Source: Patescibacteria group bacterium (lineage in GTDB: Bacteria; Patescibacteriota; Patescibacteriia; UBA10025; JAHIVO01). Taken from it: a DNA stretch of 64,000 nucleotides. The notes under the pieces were generated by a model. It saw only the letters and a program-made list of their open reading frames with translations. It was not told the DNA's origin and searched no databases. Of this stretch, positions 4,514 to 42,071 are shown one piece after another. The translations under genes were made by a program, and so were the position numbers. Numbering within the stretch: the first letter of the stretch is position 1; the number at the start of each line of letters is the position of its first letter. The DNA lies in NCBI GenBank assembly GCA_041650915.1, contig JBAZKE010000001.1, forward strand, positions 315,284 through 379,283, read 5' to 3'.

Positions 4514-6001
4514 TTACTCGCTTTTAACCGGCGCGTCTTCTGCCGTTTCCTGCAGCAGTATCGGTTCGTCCAATTGGTCGCTGAAGAATTCACTGACCAA
4601 AGGTACGATGACCTGCTTTTTGTAGAAATATTCGACGGGCGGCGTTCCGATGACGGGAAACACGAGTGCGGGCACGAAGAATTCGGAAAATTGGCTACCG
4701 GTATTTTCATACGCGGCGACGTAGGCGATGACCGGATCCCCGAGCTCAACTTCGTATGTATTTTCCGGGCTGCCGTAGCTGTATTCGTAGAATCCGCCGC
4801 GAGCGGCGATGTCCAGTATCTTTTCGGCATCGGTTTCAATCGGATACGGAGAGCTTTGCATATTGAGCGCGATAATGCTGGAGACCCCGGCTACTTTATT
4901 TTCGATGAGGTTGACATCCGCCTGGAGGCCGACCGTATCCCCAAACGTCGTGTAGACGCGCTTCCCGTCGATGAGCAGCGGGTACATTACCTGCAGGGAG
5001 TCGGGTACGTACGCCTCCTCAGTACCGTCGGCATTCTGGGTTTTCTGTTCGAGCCAGTACTTATTGATTACAGGCTCGCCGTAATTCTCAACGTTGATCT
5101 TGTGATCCTCGATGAAGCGGTCGGCCAGGCTGATAATTTCAGCATCTGCAGGGATATCGCCTTCGGCTAGGGGCTGATACTCAGGGCAGACATCGCCGTC
5201 GCATCGGCTGTACTGGTACCAGGTGTTATTGGCGGAGATATTCAGATAACCGGTGAGGAGGTTGACCTCAATAGTGTAGCCATACTCTGCATCCTGCGTG
5301 AGGCTGAAGTTCTGGAGCTGTGCCTGGCTGAACGTCGAGAGGTCAACCGCATCAAGGCCGAAATTTTTTAGGTATTCAGCGGCCTGGCTGCCGGTTGTTG
5401 CGTCTGTTACTTTTTTATACACCAGCAGCGTATCCTGCGGCAGTGCCAGATCACCGTTGTAAACGTAGTGATAGTTGATGCCCTCAAAACCGGGAATCGC
5501 TGCTGCGCCGGGTTCGGTGCCCTGCACGTCGGGTGCGGTTGCCGTACCGCCCCCGCCGTATCCGCCTCCGCTCTCGCCCGCCGTAGGCTGCAAGCTGTCG
5601 ACCGGAAGATCACCGAATGCCCGGGTGGATAGCTCTTCAACACCCAGTCCATTCGAAGACAGCTGCGCTGGGGCGCCATCATTGCCCGTGCCGTTGGAAG
5701 TTATGAGGATAATGACGATAACGGCTGCGGTGCCAACGGCGGTCAGCGTGACATTGCGGAATGAGAAGAGCTTCACCCACGAAAATCCGCGCACATCTTC
5801 CTTTGGCAGCTGCTCGAACTCCCGCGCTTTCTGGAGCAGTGCAGCCCGGAGTTCCTTCTTGAAGGCTTCGTCGATTTCGGCCTTCGGCTTTTTTTGCATG
5901 AATTTCACGATTACTTTTTTCAGCTCAACTTCGTACCGGCGGAGCTTCGGTTCGATCGCATACAGCTCCTGCAGGATGCCCGTCATGTCTTTTTCGTTCA
6001 T
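4514..6001 (-). CDS. Putative membrane-spanning anti-sigma factor (cytoplasmic helical N-domain, one TM, large extracytoplasmic domain)
   Basis: Its ATG overlaps the stop of the upstream ECF sigma gene (ATGA). It has a charged helical N-terminus, a TM around residue 85-105, a Gly-rich linker and an extracellular domain of about 380 aa. No zinc anti-sigma motif, so the call rests on context. Confidence 0.5.
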   Translation of the reverse strand: MNEKDMTGILQELYAIEPKLRRYEVELKKVIVKFMQKKPKAEIDEAFKKELRAALLQKAREFEQLPKEDVRGFSWVKLFSFRNVTLTAVGTAAVIVIILITSNGTGNDGAPAQLSSNGLGVEELSTRAFGDLPVDSLQPTAGESGGGYGGGGTATAPDVQGTEPGAAAIPGFEGINYHYVYNGDLALPQDTLLVYKKVTDATTGSQAAEYLKNFGLDAVDLSTFSQAQLQNFSLTQDAEYGYTIEVNLLTGYLNISANNTWYQYSRCDGDVCPEYQPLAEGDIPADAEIISLADRFIEDHKINVENYGEPVINKYWLEQKTQNADGTEEAYVPDSLQVMYPLLIDGKRVYTTFGDTVGLQADVNLIENKVAGVSSIIALNMQSSPYPIETDAEKILDIAARGGFYEYSYGSPENTYEVELGDPVIAYVAAYENTGSQFSEFFVPALVFPVIGTPPVEYFYKKQVIVPLVSEFFSDQLDEPILLQETAEDAPVKSE

Positions 6002-21517: not shown

Positions 21518-21628
21518 ATATAAGGTAAAATCTGACATCCAGCCGATTGTGGATTTTATAAGGGGGAAGGGGGATTAGTGGGGTGTAAATCGGCATTGAT
21601 TTTCTTAGAAAAAGGGGGTATAATTAAC

Positions 21629-21657
21629 TTGACATTGCCTAAAAAACAGAGTAACTT
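21629..21657 (+). promoter_or_regulatory. Putative promoter for the Panacea-domain gene
   Basis: TTGACA (21629-21634), 17-nt spacer, TAACTT. A TATAAT also lies at 21619-21624. Confidence 0.3.
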
Positions 21658-21677
21658 CAGCTGTTAATGTACCAGGT

Positions 21678-22277
21678 ATGTGGATAAAAGTAGGCAATTA
21701 TAAAAAAGAAGACATCCAAAAGCTTAAAGAGCTTTTAGTTTTTATTGTTGAAAAATACGAAGCTGATATATTAACCGAAACAAAGCTTTGGAAATTAGCA
21801 TATTTTTGTGAATCAAATTTTTATTTTAAAAATCATCGCACGATTACAGGAATTAATTATTATAAAAATAAATTTGGACCAACCCCTGATTATAAAGTGA
21901 TAAGCAGTATTATGGAGGAAATTGATGGTACGTATATTCAACGAAAAGAAGCGGCAAGACTAGGGGGTGGTAGGATGATTCTTTATTCAAAACTTAGTGA
22001 TTACCCGATAAAAAAATTATCAGGCGAAGAGCAAAGGGAGATTCTCGATACATGTGCAAAGTACTCGAAATTAAATACAAATGAAATCATGATACTCGCT
22101 CACAAGGATCCCCCTTATCTGGGCGCAGATGATGATGAAAAGATAAACTTTGATTTTGTTTTACATCGTGATGATTTAATTGATAACGAAGAATGCGAGA
22201 TTAATACGGATTCTGAAATTTTAGTTTCCGGAGAGGCCGCAAAGAAGCTCCTTGATTATGCAAAGTCAAAAGTATAA
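21678..22277 (+). CDS. Panacea (DUF4065, SocA-like) domain protein, a putative type II antitoxin (PanA-like)
   Basis: TKLWKLAYFCE...NKFGPTPDYKV...LSGEEQREIL...AHKDPPYL fits the Panacea core (KLQKLLYF...GP...SHxExPW). Low-GC gene overlapping the next ORF by 26 nt. Confidence 0.6.
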   Translation: MWIKVGNYKKEDIQKLKELLVFIVEKYEADILTETKLWKLAYFCESNFYFKNHRTITGINYYKNKFGPTPDYKVISSIMEEIDGTYIQRKEAARLGGGRMILYSKLSDYPIKKLSGEEQREILDTCAKYSKLNTNEIMILAHKDPPYLGADDDEKINFDFVLHRDDLIDNEECEINTDSEILVSGEAAKKLLDYAKSKV

Positions 22278-22686
22278 TGTTGCTGGAAACCAATATATAA
22301 AACGTGACTTAAAGCGTTTAAAAAAATTCAAATCACTTGAGAAGGACATTCAAGATAAGATAAAAATAATTATTGGAGGACTGCAGGATCATCAGGCTAG
22401 TTTTAGTAGTTTTCCATTTTCAGTTTTCATCACTAAAGCAAGCTTAAACGGAAAAGAGATCTGGTTCTATAAAGCCAGAATTGGCATTACTTCATGTCGT
22501 CTATCAGCCAGTAATGGTTGTCGTTTAATATTTGGTTATATTCCGGCGGATTATATATTTGTTCCGATATTGGTATATTCTGCTTCAGACGAAGGGACTG
22601 CTTACAATATTAACAAAAAGCAAATACCATTGAAGCATGAAGGATTAAAAAAAATCATTACTGAGAAATTACAATCGGAGTTTTGA
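22252..22686 (+). CDS. Candidate toxin partner of the Panacea antitoxin; unknown family with a weak RelE/ParE-fold-like pattern
   Basis: 144 aa. Overlaps the antitoxin gene in the canonical TA arrangement. ...IQDKIKIIIGGLQDH...EIWFYKARIGITSCRLSASNGCRLIFGYIP..YIFVPILVY resembles RelE/ParE strand topology. Confidence 0.4.
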   Translation: MIMQSQKYNVAGNQYIKRDLKRLKKFKSLEKDIQDKIKIIIGGLQDHQASFSSFPFSVFITKASLNGKEIWFYKARIGITSCRLSASNGCRLIFGYIPADYIFVPILVYSASDEGTAYNINKKQIPLKHEGLKKIITEKLQSEF

Positions 22687-22772
22687 TCCCCCCACCCCCG
22701 ACTGCGCATCCGTCTGATTGACAGAGGGTACATTCAGGATTAGATTATAGATACAAATCTTCCCCATAACCA

Positions 22773-23090
22773 ATGGGGATTTTATGTATGTATTACGTCT
22801 ACATTTTAGCGACTAAGTACAACAAGATGCTGTACGTCGGCGTTACCGGCAACCTAGAAGGCAGGGTGCGCCAACACAAGCGTAAGGAAGTGCCTGGCTT
22901 CACTCAAAAGTACAACATAACGAAGCTTGTTTACTATGAGGAGTACCAGTATGTACTTGACGCGATTTACCGGGAAAAGCAGATTAAGGGGTGGCTGCGG
23001 AAGAAAAAAGATATGTTGATTACGAATTTCAATCCTGGATGGAATGATCTGAGTAAGGGATGGTATAACGATTTTCCTTTGTCATCCTGA
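22773..23090 (+). CDS. Small GIY-YIG nuclease-family protein (copy 1)
   Basis: MYYVYILATKYNKMLYVGVTGNLEGRVRQHK... has the GIY...YIG and R..H motifs. About 70% identical to the copy at 39989. Confidence 0.85.
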   Translation: MGILCMYYVYILATKYNKMLYVGVTGNLEGRVRQHKRKEVPGFTQKYNITKLVYYEEYQYVLDAIYREKQIKGWLRKKKDMLITNFNPGWNDLSKGWYNDFPLSS

Positions 23091-23205
23091 GTCTATTTGT
23101 TTCTTGTCATCCTGAGCGTAAGCGAAGGATATAATCATATCCTTCGGTCGTATGACTCCCTCAGGATGACAAGGGTAGGTAAAACCCGGGATGACAAACG
23201 AGGGG
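23079..23205. repeat. GIY-YIG-associated hairpin/repeat cluster (GTCATCCTGAG motif in 3 copies)
   Basis: ttgtcatcctgag at 23079 and 23103, with the inverse ctcaggatgacaag at 23160. Nested inner hairpin cgaaggatat/atatccttcg. cgggatgacaaacg is the inverse of cgtttgtcatcccg, which is seen at the second GIY-YIG copy. Confidence 0.75.
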
Positions 23206-23366
23206 AGGACTTGGGGGGTTCAAACATAGGGCGCGGGAGGGATTGGCGTTGTTCGAGGACGAGCAAGAGCGGCATTGCCGAAACCATGCCGTAAAATGCC
23301 ATACGAATTTTTCGGACTCGCTACACACCAATAGCTTGTTTTTACTGTTGAACAGGCGTAAAATAT

Positions 23367-39900: not shown

Positions 39901-39911
39901 GGCGGGGGTAG
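36906..39911 (+). CDS. UvrD/PcrA/AddA-like superfamily-1 helicase fused to a C-terminal Cas4/RecB-type PD-(D/E)XK nuclease with an Fe-S Cys cluster
   Basis: GAGTGKTTV Walker A, DEFQDTN, VGDDDQSIYKFRGA, motif VI GMTRARDGLFLT. The C-terminal nuclease has QTCPKQYKY...IIDYKTGQ...CNSCDFREIC. Confidence 0.8.
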   Translation: MSTFDALNEAQKKAVTFGSGPLLIVAGAGTGKTTVITQRIAWLVMEKKVPTDGILALTFTEKAASEMEERVDVLLPYGYVDLWILTFHSFCERILKDNALEIGLPPDFKLLNETDQVMLVRQNLDAFNLDYYRPLGNPTKFVQALVKHFSRAKDENVMPEEYVEYAENLKLDRGDVDYAKKRGAGDEEFTEEQRIREVANAYHVYEQLLLDNSALDFGDLILYAIKLFRTRPRVLDRYRKQFRYVLVDEFQDTNYAQYELVKLLAGDRQNVTVVGDDDQSIYKFRGAAISNILEFKKDFPNSAEVVLAENYRTVQNILDVSYAFIKQNDPNRLEYQLSQGTVDPKGAPLKHKVSKKLRSAREGDGPLSHLAFRSHLEEASGVAKKIVEIKKKNKKLQWGDFAILVRANAHANEFIAALSRLEIPYQYLASRGLYAQPEVMDVIAYLKLLDNYHESPALWRVLSFAHWDLPIEDLMAVSAYARRKSLSLYEALRTARAIRGIGATFVSKTEKILSIVEAHTQLAKTKPVLPVALQFMKDSGYLKAMTSKDSPENLEKIVHLNQFFRTIETFETANNDGSVKNFLYEFSQIQEAGDEGSMNKPWEEGPDAVRIMTIHGAKGLEFPYVFLVSLVDKRFPTVERKEQIELPDALVKEIIPEGDVHLQEERRLFYVGMTRARDGLFLTSAEDYGGTRRKKPSRFLVELGFVERAGAAEKADPTERLMPPEPATQQEIRDLSFLQKAIPAQASFTQLRAFQTCPKQYKYAHILRLPVEGRHAFSFGKSIHGALFRFFTLVRQGGGASQSDLFGAKKKKQSVPAADELLALYEAEWVDDWYLSKEHAEEYRAKGAKLLREFYNSHKGTFPVPLHLEQPFHLKLGEYTFKGVIDRIDPAGEKNQAEIIDYKTGQLPKGGKLSPDDKQQLQIYDLAVREVLGLEPTLLSYYYLDANKKLSFESDEKALRDIKAQLTSQIQSIRASEFKATPGFWCNSCDFREICEDRWRG

Positions 39912-39988
39912 TTTGCGATACAAGTTATTATAGGATAGAATAGGGATAGAAATGTAATAACCTTCCCCAAATAACTTTTGGGGATTTT

Positions 39989-40270
39989 ATGTACTGCGTC
40001 TATATCATTACGAATAAACGGAAGAATGTGCTTTACACCGGCGTGACGAGCAATATCGTTGGCCGCGTTCGCCAGCACAAGAATAAGGTGCTTCCCGGTT
40101 TTACCAGCAAATACCGCGTACAGCACCTCGTCTACTATGAGGAGTACCAATACGTGTATGATGCCATCGCACGGGAGAAACAGATCAAGGGCTGGCGTCG
40201 TTCGAAAAAGGAGACATTGATCAGGCAATTGAATCCGTCATGGAGTGATTTGAGTGTTGGCTGGCACTAA
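39989..40270 (+). CDS. Small GIY-YIG nuclease-family protein (copy 2)
   Basis: MYCVYIITNKRKNVLYTGVTSNIVGRVRQHK... Same 5' flank (CCCCAAATAACTTTTGGGGATTTTATG) as copy 1. Confidence 0.85.
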   Translation: MYCVYIITNKRKNVLYTGVTSNIVGRVRQHKNKVLPGFTSKYRVQHLVYYEEYQYVYDAIAREKQIKGWRRSKKETLIRQLNPSWSDLSVGWH

Positions 40271-40271
40271 T

Positions 40272-40390
40272 GCTTGTCATCGCAAGCCCCCCACGTTTGT
40301 CATCCCGACCCGCCAATGGGCGGGGAGGGATCTCGGTAAAGAACACTATGCCAGTAACAGAGATGCTTCGACTTCGCTCAGCATGACAAG
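40272..40390. repeat. GIY-YIG-associated hairpin/repeat cluster (copy 2)
   Basis: cttgtcat ... atgacaag outer arms. cgtttgtcatcccg motif. Inner cccgcc/ggcggg hairpin. Confidence 0.65.
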
Positions 40391-40466
40391 GGTTGTTTTT
40401 GTTGCTTGCGTAATTGTTGGTGGGGGGTAGAATGAGGGTGCACATTAAATTTTATATTTACGAAAT

Positions 40467-40940
40467 ATGAAAATTCAAAAAAGTACAAGGCACTCAAAAA
40501 TAACTGGAAATTTTTGTGAAAGTGTCATTTTATATTGGTTATCAAAATATGGATTTGAGTGCGCAAACGTAGATCATACGGGCATTGATATTATTGCTCG
40601 TAATCCTCATACAAAGGAGGTTATGGGAATTTCAGTAAAAGGCAGAAGTAGAAATGAAGGAAAAGAAAAGACTTATGTCAGCATCCCAAATGATAATTTT
40701 GATAAAATTAGAAGGGCGTGTAAAGCGTTTAATTGTGTTCCATATTTTGCAATAGTTGTTGATGAAAAAGATAGAATATACTCATTCATTGTATCAATGG
40801 GGCATTTATTAAAATTATTTCCAGAAGGTAATCGCGTATGTGCGTGGAAAATGACAGAAAAACATATCGCACGATACAAGCAAGACTCCGAAATAATGTT
40901 TTTTGAATTTGATTATAAGACACTGAATTGGTGGGAATAA
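40467..40940 (+). CDS. Low-GC orphan protein with an Hjc/YraN-like PD-(D/E)XK restriction-endonuclease-fold N-terminal domain
   Basis: ESVILYWLSKYGFECANVDHTGIDIIARNPHTKEVMGISVKG follows the E...GxD(hhA)...hhhh(E/S)xK pattern of Holliday-junction-resolvase-like nucleases. The C-terminal 80 aa are unknown. Confidence 0.45.
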   Translation: MKIQKSTRHSKITGNFCESVILYWLSKYGFECANVDHTGIDIIARNPHTKEVMGISVKGRSRNEGKEKTYVSIPNDNFDKIRRACKAFNCVPYFAIVVDEKDRIYSFIVSMGHLLKLFPEGNRVCAWKMTEKHIARYKQDSEIMFFEFDYKTLNWWE

Positions 40941-40960
40941 ATTATTTTTACGATTGAAGT

Positions 40961-41641
40961 ATGCGAGAGCGTTTAACTATTATCGTTGCATTAACCTGCT
41001 GCGTGGTTTTATCTGGTTGTGCTATTCAGCAGACAAACGGTAATTCATCCACTAGCGTTAATACCAACTTCCCTGTCAACACCAACGCCACGCCAGTTGT
41101 AAATTCGAACACGAATACAGTGATCAATGCCACGCCAGTGGTAAAGGAGTTTATCTCACCGCTTGATAAGCCGGCGGAACGCATTACGAAAAAGCCGTTT
41201 GGCATTTACATCACGCCCACGGCGTCACCGGTTCAGCCGGAGAGGTTTTCTGGTTTTCACACCGGCGTGGATTTTGAAATTTTGGCAGGTGAGGAAGATA
41301 GTGACGTAGCAGTTACGGCAGGGTGCAGTGGTACGGTTCGAGATAAACAGCGGGTGAGTGGGTACGGCGGTGTGCTGGTGCAGGATTGCGTTTTAGCCGG
41401 CGAAAACGTAACTGTTTTGTACGGCCATTTGAATTTGGATAGCATAACCATTTCAGTGGGTGATACGCTGCATCAGGGGGATTTGATAGGCAATCTTGGC
41501 ACGGGGTATAGTACCCAGACGGATAATGAGCGCAAGCATTTGCATGTGTCGGTACACAAAGGAACGGGCGTAAATTACAAAGGATATGTGAGTTTAGAAT
41601 CAGCGCTTGAGGATTGGATCGACCCGCAGGAATATTTTTAA
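40961..41641 (+). CDS. M23-family (LytM-like) metallopeptidase lipoprotein
   Basis: Lipobox VLSGC. HTGVDF (HxxxD) and KHLHVSVH (HxH) zinc motifs. Confidence 0.75.
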   Translation: MRERLTIIVALTCCVVLSGCAIQQTNGNSSTSVNTNFPVNTNATPVVNSNTNTVINATPVVKEFISPLDKPAERITKKPFGIYITPTASPVQPERFSGFHTGVDFEILAGEEDSDVAVTAGCSGTVRDKQRVSGYGGVLVQDCVLAGENVTVLYGHLNLDSITISVGDTLHQGDLIGNLGTGYSTQTDNERKHLHVSVHKGTGVNYKGYVSLESALEDWIDPQEYF

Positions 41642-41777
41642 CGAAAAAGTTTTTACTTTTCACCCGATACGGTATACAGTAGTAGTATGGTGGAACAAAT
41701 CGGTGGTCTACTCCAACGGACGTTACGCCAGGTCACCATGGCAATGGTTTGTAATTGTTAGATTGTATCTTTTTACT

Positions 41778-42071
41778 ATGCCCATAGCACTCAGAGATTT
41801 ACTGCCGGAGAGCCTGCGGAAAGCGGGCATTGCCAAAGAGGTGAATGCCGCGCGTGTGTGCAGCGAGTTTAATGTGATCCTGAAGGAGGTGCTCGGCGGG
41901 AAGGCAGCTGAGAAGGCGAACGCCATATACGTGAAAAACGGGACGCTTACCATCGCCGTTATGAGCTCGGTAATCGGCCAGGAGATCAAGCTGCACGAGC
42001 ACGAGCTGCTTCAAAAACTCGGGGAAAAGGTTGGTCAAAAAGCAGTTGAAAGATTGCGTTTTTTAGTGTAA
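41778..42071 (+). CDS. DUF721-domain protein (DciA-like replicative helicase operator/loader family)
   Basis: LPESLRKAGIAKEVNAARVCSEFNVILKEVLG...NGTLTIAVMSSVIGQEIKLHEHELLQKL matches the DUF721 architecture. ORF trimmed to the ATG at 41778. Confidence 0.5.
   Translation: MPIALRDLLPESLRKAGIAKEVNAARVCSEFNVILKEVLGGKAAEKANAIYVKNGTLTIAVMSSVIGQEIKLHEHELLQKLGEKVGQKAVERLRFLV

Follow-up and report, generated by a model that had tools for sequence, protein, structure and literature searches.

The 64-kb stretch of Patescibacteria DNA analyzed here (64,000 nucleotides of contig JBAZKE010000001.1; hereafter the window) carries two diverged Ssn/SRM modules, designated locus A and locus B. In each of them, a gene for a small GIY-YIG nuclease of the Ssn family (ssn-A and ssn-B, respectively) is accompanied by hairpin repeats that stand 3' of the gene and are of the kind called Ssn-related motifs (SRMs). 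Ssn/SRM modules with cognate hairpins at both loci are, with good confidence, the best explanation of these sequences. The two genes and their hairpins are members of a system already described, for the first time in 2025, not a new kind of element, and the known picture is extended by them rather than changed. A preliminary description of the same DNA had proposed a selfish or homing GIY-YIG cassette whose insertion sites are hot spots for foreign DNA.

The reference system is that of Neisseria meningitidis (Chenal et al. 2025, Nat Commun 16:2388; PMC11893778), in which SsnA (NMV_0044), a 94-aa GIY-YIG protein assigned to CDD cd10448, binds one strand only of the NTS hairpin (CGTCATTCCCGCGMAVGCGGGAATCYRG), exclusively in the form of single-stranded DNA (ssDNA), with cleavage a few nucleotides upstream of it. 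Double-stranded DNA (dsDNA) is neither bound nor cut, the RNA form is not bound, and the substitutions Y6A, Y17A and E64A abolish cutting. Cleavage depends most on the three bases before the palindrome, and binding on the C after it. At least one SRM was reported in 71% of the ssnA-homolog regions and SRMs on both sides in 42%, and the NTS-ssnA-NTS layout was likened to an insertion sequence (IS) and to the REP/RAYT system (PMC11893778). SsnA lowers the transformation of Neisseria by NTS-bearing DNA, and this restriction of transforming ssDNA is the only demonstrated role of Ssn. By current descriptions, the Ssn nucleases are the first site-specific endonucleases whose cleavage is confined to ssDNA, and they are of interest as ssDNA tools. 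The repeats also resemble the CGTC-tagged repetitive extragenic palindromes (REPs) of Di Nocera, De Gregorio & Rocco (2013, BMC Genomics 14:522; PMC3733652), whose tag is CGTC and often TGTC. These have an AT-starting stem and a 3-nt tail, occur mostly as dimers with the tags outside, include dRS3 of Neisseria, and are said to be without a dedicated transposase (PMC3733652).

Two Ssn-family nuclease genes

Both GIY-YIG open reading frames (ORFs) of the preliminary description, of 105 aa (from 22773) and 93 aa (from 39989), do exist. ATG 22788 is the likely start of ssn-A because of its alignment with copy B and with homologs, and the two proteins are identical at 60 of 93 positions (65%; BLASTP E 8e-37), not at about 70% as had been stated. 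Residues 1-74 of each match the Pfam GIY-YIG domain (E 1.3e-15 for ssn-A and 1.2e-17 for ssn-B). For comparison with SsnA, the N. gonorrhoeae homolog, translated from L097:1192-1473 and found by tblastn with an E-value of 5e-17 in 7.3 Gb, was used in place of N. meningitidis NMV_0044. Over 85-86 aa, both window proteins are 47% identical to it (E 3e-25 for ssn-A and 8e-27 for ssn-B), and both lie below the limit of E < 1e-10 to Neisseria SsnA by which Chenal et al. 2025 recognize homologs. Y5, Y16 and E63 of the window proteins align with the catalytic Y6, Y17 and E64 of N. meningitidis SsnA and are invariant in 25 homologs.

The AlphaFold2 (AF2) model of ssn-B (pLDDT 95) consists of one compact GIY-YIG domain and a C-terminal helix with no additional domain; its nearest structures are 1zg2 (UPF0213 protein BH0048), Slx1 and the N-terminal domain of UvrC. 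Both window proteins have the single-domain build of the Ssn family (about 90-100 aa, no extra domain). A profile search reached the UPF0213 structures 1zg2 and 1ywl in PDB (E 1.7e-6 and 7e-4, about 23% identity), a single-sequence phmmer search of PDB gave no match, and searches of NCBIfam, which has no model for the Ssn family, PADLOC and PHROGs returned nothing decisive. On the strength of these sequence comparisons, both proteins very probably belong to the Ssn family of ssDNA nucleases. Each of the two is closer to genes of other genomes (78% and 81% identity) than to its partner (65%), ssn-A being 78% identical to P0017.

Hairpin repeats beside the two genes

The motif TTGTCATCCTGAG, with up to two mismatches, occurs seven times in the window (0.95 expected), and none of 100 shuffles reached seven. 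Six of the seven matches fall at loci A and B, where copies of TTGTCATCC(T/C)GA stand 3' of both genes, which bears out the earlier report of nested 3' inverted repeats with a GTCATCC-type motif. A covariance model (CM R1) was then made from 36 units of other genomes only, and the window was searched with filters off. It yielded four significant sites (E 5e-7 to 2e-3), all beside the two ssn genes, and the next best had an E-value of 1.4. The positions of these units and of the other features are listed in Table 1.

All four units have an unpaired TGTC head, an AT...AT palindrome and then a C, and stand beside an ssn gene, in keeping with the SRM definition (HGTC head, palindrome starting W-Y, C after it). 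They also show the tag, stem and dimer features of CGTC REPs (unpaired CGTC/TGTC, AT stem, tags outward). Their stems comprise five Watson-Crick pairs, then G·A and A·G, then at least two further Watson-Crick pairs, with loops of 3-13 nt. The outer stems differ (ATCCT in locus A; ATCCC and ATGCT in locus B), and the 3' tail is CTC in locus B and ATA/ATG in locus A. The unit layout is alike at both loci: a forward unit is followed by a reverse unit, heads outward, 3' of the gene. The preliminary description had the repeats in inverted orientation between the loci; this is correct for the CGTTTGTCATCCCG motif, found at 23185-23197 (minus strand) and 40297-40309 (plus strand), but not for the overall forward-then-reverse architecture. 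Locus A contains a perfect 14-nt inverted repeat (23103-23116 / 23160-23173), and its nested hairpin folds at -31.9 kcal/mol (z -8.3). The fold of locus B as a whole is weaker (z -1.7), and its individual units fold. In the whole window, no Rfam family was found at gathering thresholds, and at E <= 10 only generic miRNA-hairpin noise appeared.

Table 1. Coordinates of the genes, repeats and regulatory-type sequences of the two modules (window numbering)
Feature	Position	Strand	Description
Left arm of inverted repeat bracketing locus A module	22682..22694	.	13 nt, TTTGATCCCCCCA; overlaps the stop codon of the upstream ORF
Promoter match of ssn-A	22718..22746	+	sigma-70-like, TTGACA-17-TAGATT; consensus match only
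Leader hairpin A	22761..22779	+	putative anti-Shine-Dalgarno arm TCCCCAT pairs with Shine-Dalgarno-like arm ATGGGGA; followed by TTTTATGT and the start codon
ssn-A	22788-23090	+	100-aa single-domain GIY-YIG nuclease, probable Ssn family; alternative upstream ATG 22773 (22773-23090, 105 aa)
Partial SRM head	23079..23091	+	TTGTCATCCTGAG; its TGA is the ssn-A stop; weak CM score, 9.1 bits
Forward SRM (TGTC-tagged REP unit), locus A	23102..23136	+	TGTC-ATCCT-GA-GC-GTAA-GC-GA-AGGAT; CM R1 28.2 bits, E 8.9e-5
Reverse SRM unit, locus A	23133..23174	-	CM R1 23.0 bits, E 0.0017; tags-outward (HH) dimer with 23102-23136
Partial SRM head, outer arm of nested hairpin	23185..23197	-	TTGTCATCCCGGG on the minus strand
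Right arm of inverted repeat bracketing locus A module	23212..23224	.	TGGGGGGTTCAAA
Promoter match of ssn-B	39913..39941	+	sigma-70-like, TTGCGA-17-TAGAAT; consensus match only
Leader hairpin B	39964..39984	+	TCCCCAAA pairs with TTTGGGGA; followed by TTTT and ATG
ssn-B	39989-40270	+	93-aa single-domain GIY-YIG nuclease, probable Ssn family
Small palindrome with partial SRM head	40272..40287	+	GCTTGTCATCGCAAGC
Forward SRM unit, locus B	40295..40337	+	TGTC-ATCCC-GA-CCCGCC-AATG-GGCGGG-GA-GGGAT-CTC; CM R1 30.5 bits, E 2.3e-5; -12.1 kcal/mol, z -3.1
Reverse SRM unit, locus B	40357..40391	-	TGTC-ATGCT-GA-GCGAAGTC-GA-AGCAT-CTC; CM R1 37.1 bits, E 5.3e-7; HH dimer with 40295-40337
Short repeat after locus B dimer	40420..40427	.	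GTGGGGGG; complementary (8/8) to CCCCCCAC at 40287-40294; the pair brackets the locus B SRM dimer; short, could be chance

Association of ssn genes and repeats in other genomes

More than 2,800 relatives of the window protein were found at E <= 1e-10. With one genome per species, a scan gave 80 loci that span nearly all bacterial phyla (48-63% identity), and CM R1 detected 181 units in 457 kb of homolog loci. When the four window units are included, 123 of 185 lie at most 150 bp from an ssn ORF and 19 lie more than 600 bp away, and units are enriched approximately 80-fold beside ssn genes. A simple head-plus-stem regular expression places a unit no more than 200 bp from 79 of 88 ssn genes, the background density being 0.4 units per kb. 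The association of ssn genes with the repeats holds across phyla, and the motifs first noticed in the window are conserved far beyond this genome.

The general unit has an unpaired YGTC head, an AT-starting stem, a variable interior and a closing AT, followed by C(T/C)N. In the aligned units, the GTC head and the C after the palindrome are invariant across phyla; these are the positions found by mutagenesis to be critical for cleavage and binding (PMC11893778). The stem pairs themselves covary (pair 10/64: CG 47, UA 41, GC 10; pair 12/61: UA 60, CG 36), including an inner pair that took no part in sequence selection (pair 15/57: GC 78, AU 16). Changes on both sides of a pair amount to 127 cells, compared with 35 in shuffles, and none of 500 shuffles was as high. 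Among 251 units beside ssn genes in 83 loci, 68% consist of a 5-bp stem, GA, an inner hairpin, GA and the 5-bp stem again, and the published SRM search string fits seven.

In the commonest layout, seen for 29 of 88 genes, ssn lies within a tags-outward pair whose forward unit is upstream of it and whose reverse unit is downstream; the opposite one, with the tags facing the gene, was seen for 17. Species with classic CGTC REPs have their ssn homolog flanked by their own REP type (N. gonorrhoeae with dRS3/NTS, Azospirillum lipoferum, N. aromaticivorans, and S. meliloti). The N. gonorrhoeae homolog lies within a dRS3/NTS array, and that on plasmid AZO_p3 of A. lipoferum 4B (L098 1080-1586) stands between sufB and sufC in an otherwise contiguous suf operon, with one tags-outward CGTC-REP dimer on either side.

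Two further observations concern these loci. Mesonia sediminis (L065 2512-3747) carries SRM-ssn-SRM in three tandem copies with a 423-bp period. Many ssn stop codons in the 83 homolog loci (L001-L083) are a TGA inside an SRM (GGATGACA or CTGAG), and the annotated C-terminal tails vary (DPSLRSG, LRFAQDD, VILSDSEES) because reading frames run through into SRM units.

Promoter and leader hairpin

The shared 5' element that had been reported for the two genes was found again: the string GGGGATTTTATGTA is exact at 22775 and 39980, ahead of both genes, and a hairpin accompanies it at both loci. In leader hairpin A, the arms TCCCCA and TGGGGA enclose a loop (-6.6 kcal/mol, z -2.3), and leader hairpin B folds at -7.5 kcal/mol (z -3.3). 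Among eight loci of the Candidate Phyla Radiation (CPR) examined, sigma-70-like matches end 34-54 nt before the ATG in six. Both in the window and in six Patescibacteria loci related to it, the ATG is preceded at 4-5 nt by a purine-rich arm that resembles a Shine-Dalgarno (SD) sequence and pairs with an upstream pyrimidine arm. Across CPR loci the two arms change in a compensatory manner (TCCCCA/TGGGGA, CCTTCC/GGAAGG, CTCCCC/GGGGAG and CCTCCC/GGGAGG). The pairing suggests a leader that would sequester the ribosome-binding site in this CPR subclade. A hairpin followed by a U-run also fits a terminator-like pattern, so that attenuation is an alternative.

The upstream TCCCC/GGGGA hairpin occupies the position where other homologs carry a forward SRM, and it was also considered as a degenerate copy of such a unit. 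This was rejected because it gave no CM match at E <= 10 with filters off and because its 3' arm is SD-like with compensatory changes. A second leader-hairpin-like sequence (CAAACCTTCCCCGGTGGAAAGGTTTG) was observed in L003 (3503-3528), downstream of an ssn gene's SRM cluster; it may be a remnant of another module or a terminator.

Extent of the module and a variable site

Comparison of copy A with the locus of P0017 (L101) at the DNA level showed a similarity that begins at the -35 element and runs through the SRM cluster; beyond this span the two loci, and their contexts, are unrelated. Because the similarity stops at these ends, the recurring unit consists of promoter, leader hairpin, ssn and SRMs and measures about 0.5 kb. 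The earlier suggestion of a single recurring module made up of gene, leader hairpin and GTCATCC repeats is upheld. The GC content of the modules is 0.42-0.46, compared with 0.5-0.6 around them. A low-GC patch is indeed present beside each copy, as had been noted (0.30-0.36 at 21550-22600 and 0.32-0.34 at 40400-41000, versus 0.50-0.63 in the flanks).

The module of locus A is bracketed by inverted-repeat arms (TTTGATCCCCCCA and TGGGGGGTTCAAA) that are 92% complementary and 517 nt apart. Comparable pairs have a background of 22 per 64 kb, which gives a post-hoc chance of about 0.003 of bracketing the module, and the significance is uncertain. An analogous 11/11 pair in L092 (CCCACACCAAT at 1419-1429 and ATTGGTGTGGG at 2006-2016) brackets the whole promoter-ssn-SRM module, and five other CPR loci examined have no such bracketing pair. 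These arms might represent terminal repeats, or else a palindromic target that has been split.

Locus B lies between a gene for a UvrD-type helicase with a PD-(D/E)XK domain and dciA, and this site was found in three states. In L085 (helicase 52% identical; 5191-5213) it is empty and dciA directly follows the helicase gene. L084, the closest relative (helicase 67%; 5218-5720), has SRM dimers and a small ORF at this place without ssn, and no ssn gene occurs in the 9.2 kb of L084 examined. The window (39911-41778) has ssn, an SRM dimer, a low-GC orphan and an M23 peptidase gene. The gap between helicase and dciA is a good single case of a variable site marked by SRMs, and recalls the NTS/dRS3-flanked variable regions of Neisseria. 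For the claim that the insertion sites are hot spots for foreign DNA, this one three-state comparison is suggestive support, restricted to a single site.

Proposed mode of action

Each locus would be a self-contained Ssn/SRM module in which a promoter-like site and a leader hairpin precede the nuclease gene and a tags-outward pair of cognate repeats follows its stop codon. The leader hairpin is predicted to pair the SD-like GGGGA with the upstream TCCCC and may throttle translation. By homology with SsnA, the window Ssn proteins would bind the hairpin only in ssDNA, and only on the strand reading 5'-YGTCAT...ATC-3', and would nick a few nucleotides 5' of the tag. Since each dimer has one unit per strand, either strand could be cleaved just outside the dimer when single-stranded. 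Occasions for this may be replication and incoming transforming DNA. The role might be restriction or modulation of recombination at SRM-marked sites, or an IS- or RAYT-like spread of the module and its repeats. The conserved flank, which the preliminary description offered as the possible nuclease target, would accordingly be read differently: it is the predicted binding site of the nuclease, because what relatives bind is the repeat in its ssDNA form, with a nick made upstream of it, but not an empty-allele homing target.

We infer by homology that these two CPR enzymes act like SsnA. In common with the Neisseria system, they are single-domain GIY-YIG proteins of about 94 aa with 47% identity and the catalytic Y/Y/E kept, and their genes are tied to inverted pairs of hairpins with an unpaired YGTC head, an AT stem start and a C after the palindrome, a combination of wide spread. 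Several differences weigh against the assignment. The Ssn biochemistry comes from relatives, none of them Patescibacteria, and specificity is not simply transferable, because the Neisseria enzyme loses activity when the sequence of the palindrome is altered with its structure kept (PMC11893778). The published SRM string, HGTCWYN(0-2)YYVSBRHN(0-5)WNVSBRGN(0-2)RNCYNB, which we verified to match the canonical NTS, has no match in the window, where a 5-bp outer stem, followed by tandem G·A and an inner mini-hairpin, takes the place of the continuous stem of 8-9 bp. No unit was found upstream of either window gene by CM or regular expression; both units are downstream instead of flanking, a layout that differs from the commonest one among the homologs and from the published SRM-ssn-SRM. 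There are only four units in 64 kb and therefore no sign of repeat expansion in this stretch. The window copies also differ in their conserved, presumably SD-sequestering leader hairpin. Since head, tail and hairpin are all present, we treat the failed search string as the mark of a motif variant and not of lost kinship: the window SRMs are a short-stem, tandem-G·A variant that the published string misses.

Known systems and alternative explanations

The CGTC REPs, including dRS3 of Neisseria and RPE-4/6 of Rickettsia, share with the window units the unpaired CGTC/TGTC tag, a stem beginning A,T, a short 3' tail and a prevalence of HH dimers with short spacers. They differ in having perfect 8-9-bp stems, 4-5-nt loops, a CCA tail and tens to thousands of copies per genome with no enzyme reported, whereas the window has CTC tails (ATA in locus A), G·A-interrupted stems, varying loops and four units in 64 kb. 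It could be argued that the hairpins do no more than act in cis as RNA or transcription signals, such as terminators or mRNA stabilizers, and that their link to a GIY-YIG gene is incidental. The units do lie downstream of ORFs, the fold of locus A is very stable (-31.9 kcal/mol), the leader hairpin is also terminator-like, and REPs are generally credited with terminator and stabilizer roles (PMC3733652). However, the SRM dimers have no T-run after them, and the units occur in both orientations and also upstream of genes and match no Rfam family; the unpaired GTC head and the C tail, invariant across phyla, would be needless in a terminator. Given in addition the enrichment of about 80-fold specifically beside ssn genes and the failure of SsnA to bind the RNA form (PMC11893778), we regard this explanation as quite improbable.

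A free-standing GIY-YIG homing endonuclease, which would cut the empty dsDNA allele and be copied in by repair with the flank as its target, corresponds to the homing proposal of the preliminary description. The GIY-YIG catalytic fold is common to I-TevI and the phage Seg proteins, which are likewise small, selfish-looking intergenic genes, and PHROG homing endonucleases gave weak matches (E 1e-4 to 3e-4). The window genes are also intergenic insertions with their own promoter, and an empty site exists in a relative. Homing endonucleases of this type, however, have a separate DNA-binding domain and cleave dsDNA, and to judge from sequence and homology the window proteins do neither: each is one domain of 93-100 aa without a NUMOD/IENR-type DNA-binding domain, and the NCBIfam group I intron endonuclease model (TIGR01453) scores 16 bits against a cut-off of 56. 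The flank is kept beside the gene and in many gene-less copies, the opposite of a target destroyed by insertion. The homing proposal is unsupported because there is no DNA-binding extension and because the characterized relatives, which act on ssDNA only, neither bind nor cut dsDNA (PMC11893778); we consider it most improbable and, by homology, for the most part refuted. Slx1 and the UPF0213 proteins (1zg2, 1ywl) are the nearest solved folds and have the same minimal GIY-YIG core, but the sequence relation is distant, and Slx1, whose substrate is branched duplex DNA, depends on Slx4 and a RING domain.

Closer in organization are REP/RAYT REPtrons, REPINs and IS200/IS605 TnpA, in which a small nuclease gene is bracketed by inverted hairpins with an unpaired tetranucleotide, the hairpin is recognized in ssDNA, and gene-less repeat dimers occur elsewhere in the genome. 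Their enzyme is an HUH/Y1 transposase with the tag GTAG, compared with GIY-YIG and YGTC here, and the window protein does not have the HUH-Y1 fold but that of GIY-YIG; RAYTs, moreover, are usually single-copy and vertically inherited. On this model, the Ssn/SRM module would be an autonomous selfish IS-like or REPtron-like element, with Ssn nicking hairpin ends in ssDNA and with gene-less SRM dimers as its non-autonomous derivatives, analogous to REPINs/RAYTs or IS200/IS605. Chenal et al. (PMC11893778) remarked on the IS-like layout. The ssn ORF lies within a tags-outward pair in 29 of 88 genes, but the tags face the gene in 17. Modules interrupt conserved gene strings (sufB|sufC in A. lipoferum, hsp20...|dnaK, and pgk|eno) and occur as three tandem copies in Mesonia. 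Promoter, hairpin, gene and SRM cluster are common to copy A and L101, which stand in unrelated contexts; the similarity ends at the module ends, and the module has a lower GC content than its surroundings. The closest relative has SRM dimers without ssn. In locus A and L092 the module as a whole is enclosed by short inverted repeats, which the five other CPR loci lack. The window copies, though closer to genes of other genomes (78% and 81%) than to each other, are old and not recent paralogs (65% identical), and there are four units only in 64 kb. Such modules are not known to transpose, to excise or to leave target-site duplications. A nuclease by itself is without strand-transfer activity, and we know of no strand-transfer chemistry for Ssn. 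A selfish element seems possible rather than probable. It concerns the biological role and is compatible with the molecular identity of the genes and repeats as Ssn and SRM.

Additions to the known system

The additions made here are modest: an SRM variant, a covarying leader hairpin, a delimited module and a three-state site. Two diverged enzyme/hairpin pairs are added from Patescibacteria. Published repeat counts may undercount the tandem-G·A class because the published string does not detect it. The delimited modules of about 0.5 kb, together with a site that is empty, SRM-only or ssn-bearing, are useful for the question of mobile versus domesticated modules; whether selfish element or domesticated genome-dynamics factor, both are possible, and the literature likewise leaves room for both. 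A more far-reaching idea, which we put forward as a rather doubtful speculation, is that in the streamlined CPR genomes the Ssn/SRM module is an autonomous mobile unit with a GIY-YIG ssDNA nuclease as IS-like engine, and that its tags-outward SRM dimers both mark and create hot spots of recombination or insertion, where low-GC cargo such as toxin-antitoxin pairs and nucleases would be captured. If so, tandem-G·A SRMs would be a large share of SRM diversity unseen by the published string.

Neighboring genes and minor observations

Directly upstream of ssn-A, a low-GC (0.30-0.36) island of two genes was observed at 21678-22686. One encodes a SocA/Panacea-domain protein (Pfam E 8e-10; weak DarG-like PADLOC match), and the other, an overlapping ORF of 144 aa, gave no family match. 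The island looks like a toxin-antitoxin pair. A different pair of this appearance (HTH_17 and Fic) stands at the corresponding place upstream of the ssn homolog in L092-L094.

On the far side of the locus B repeats, the low-GC (0.32-0.34) orphan ORF at 40467-40940 had been called Hjc-like. This label is unverified, Pfam Mrr_cat at E = 0.11 being the only hint; NCBIfam, PADLOC and PHROGs gave no match, and a single-sequence AF2 model (pLDDT 53) was unusable. A 13-nt A/T-rich inverted repeat (40470 / 40899) lies inside the ends of this ORF. In L084, a tags-inward SRM pair with heads about 10-18 nt apart was also observed at 776-853, some 4.4 kb upstream of the helicase|dciA site.

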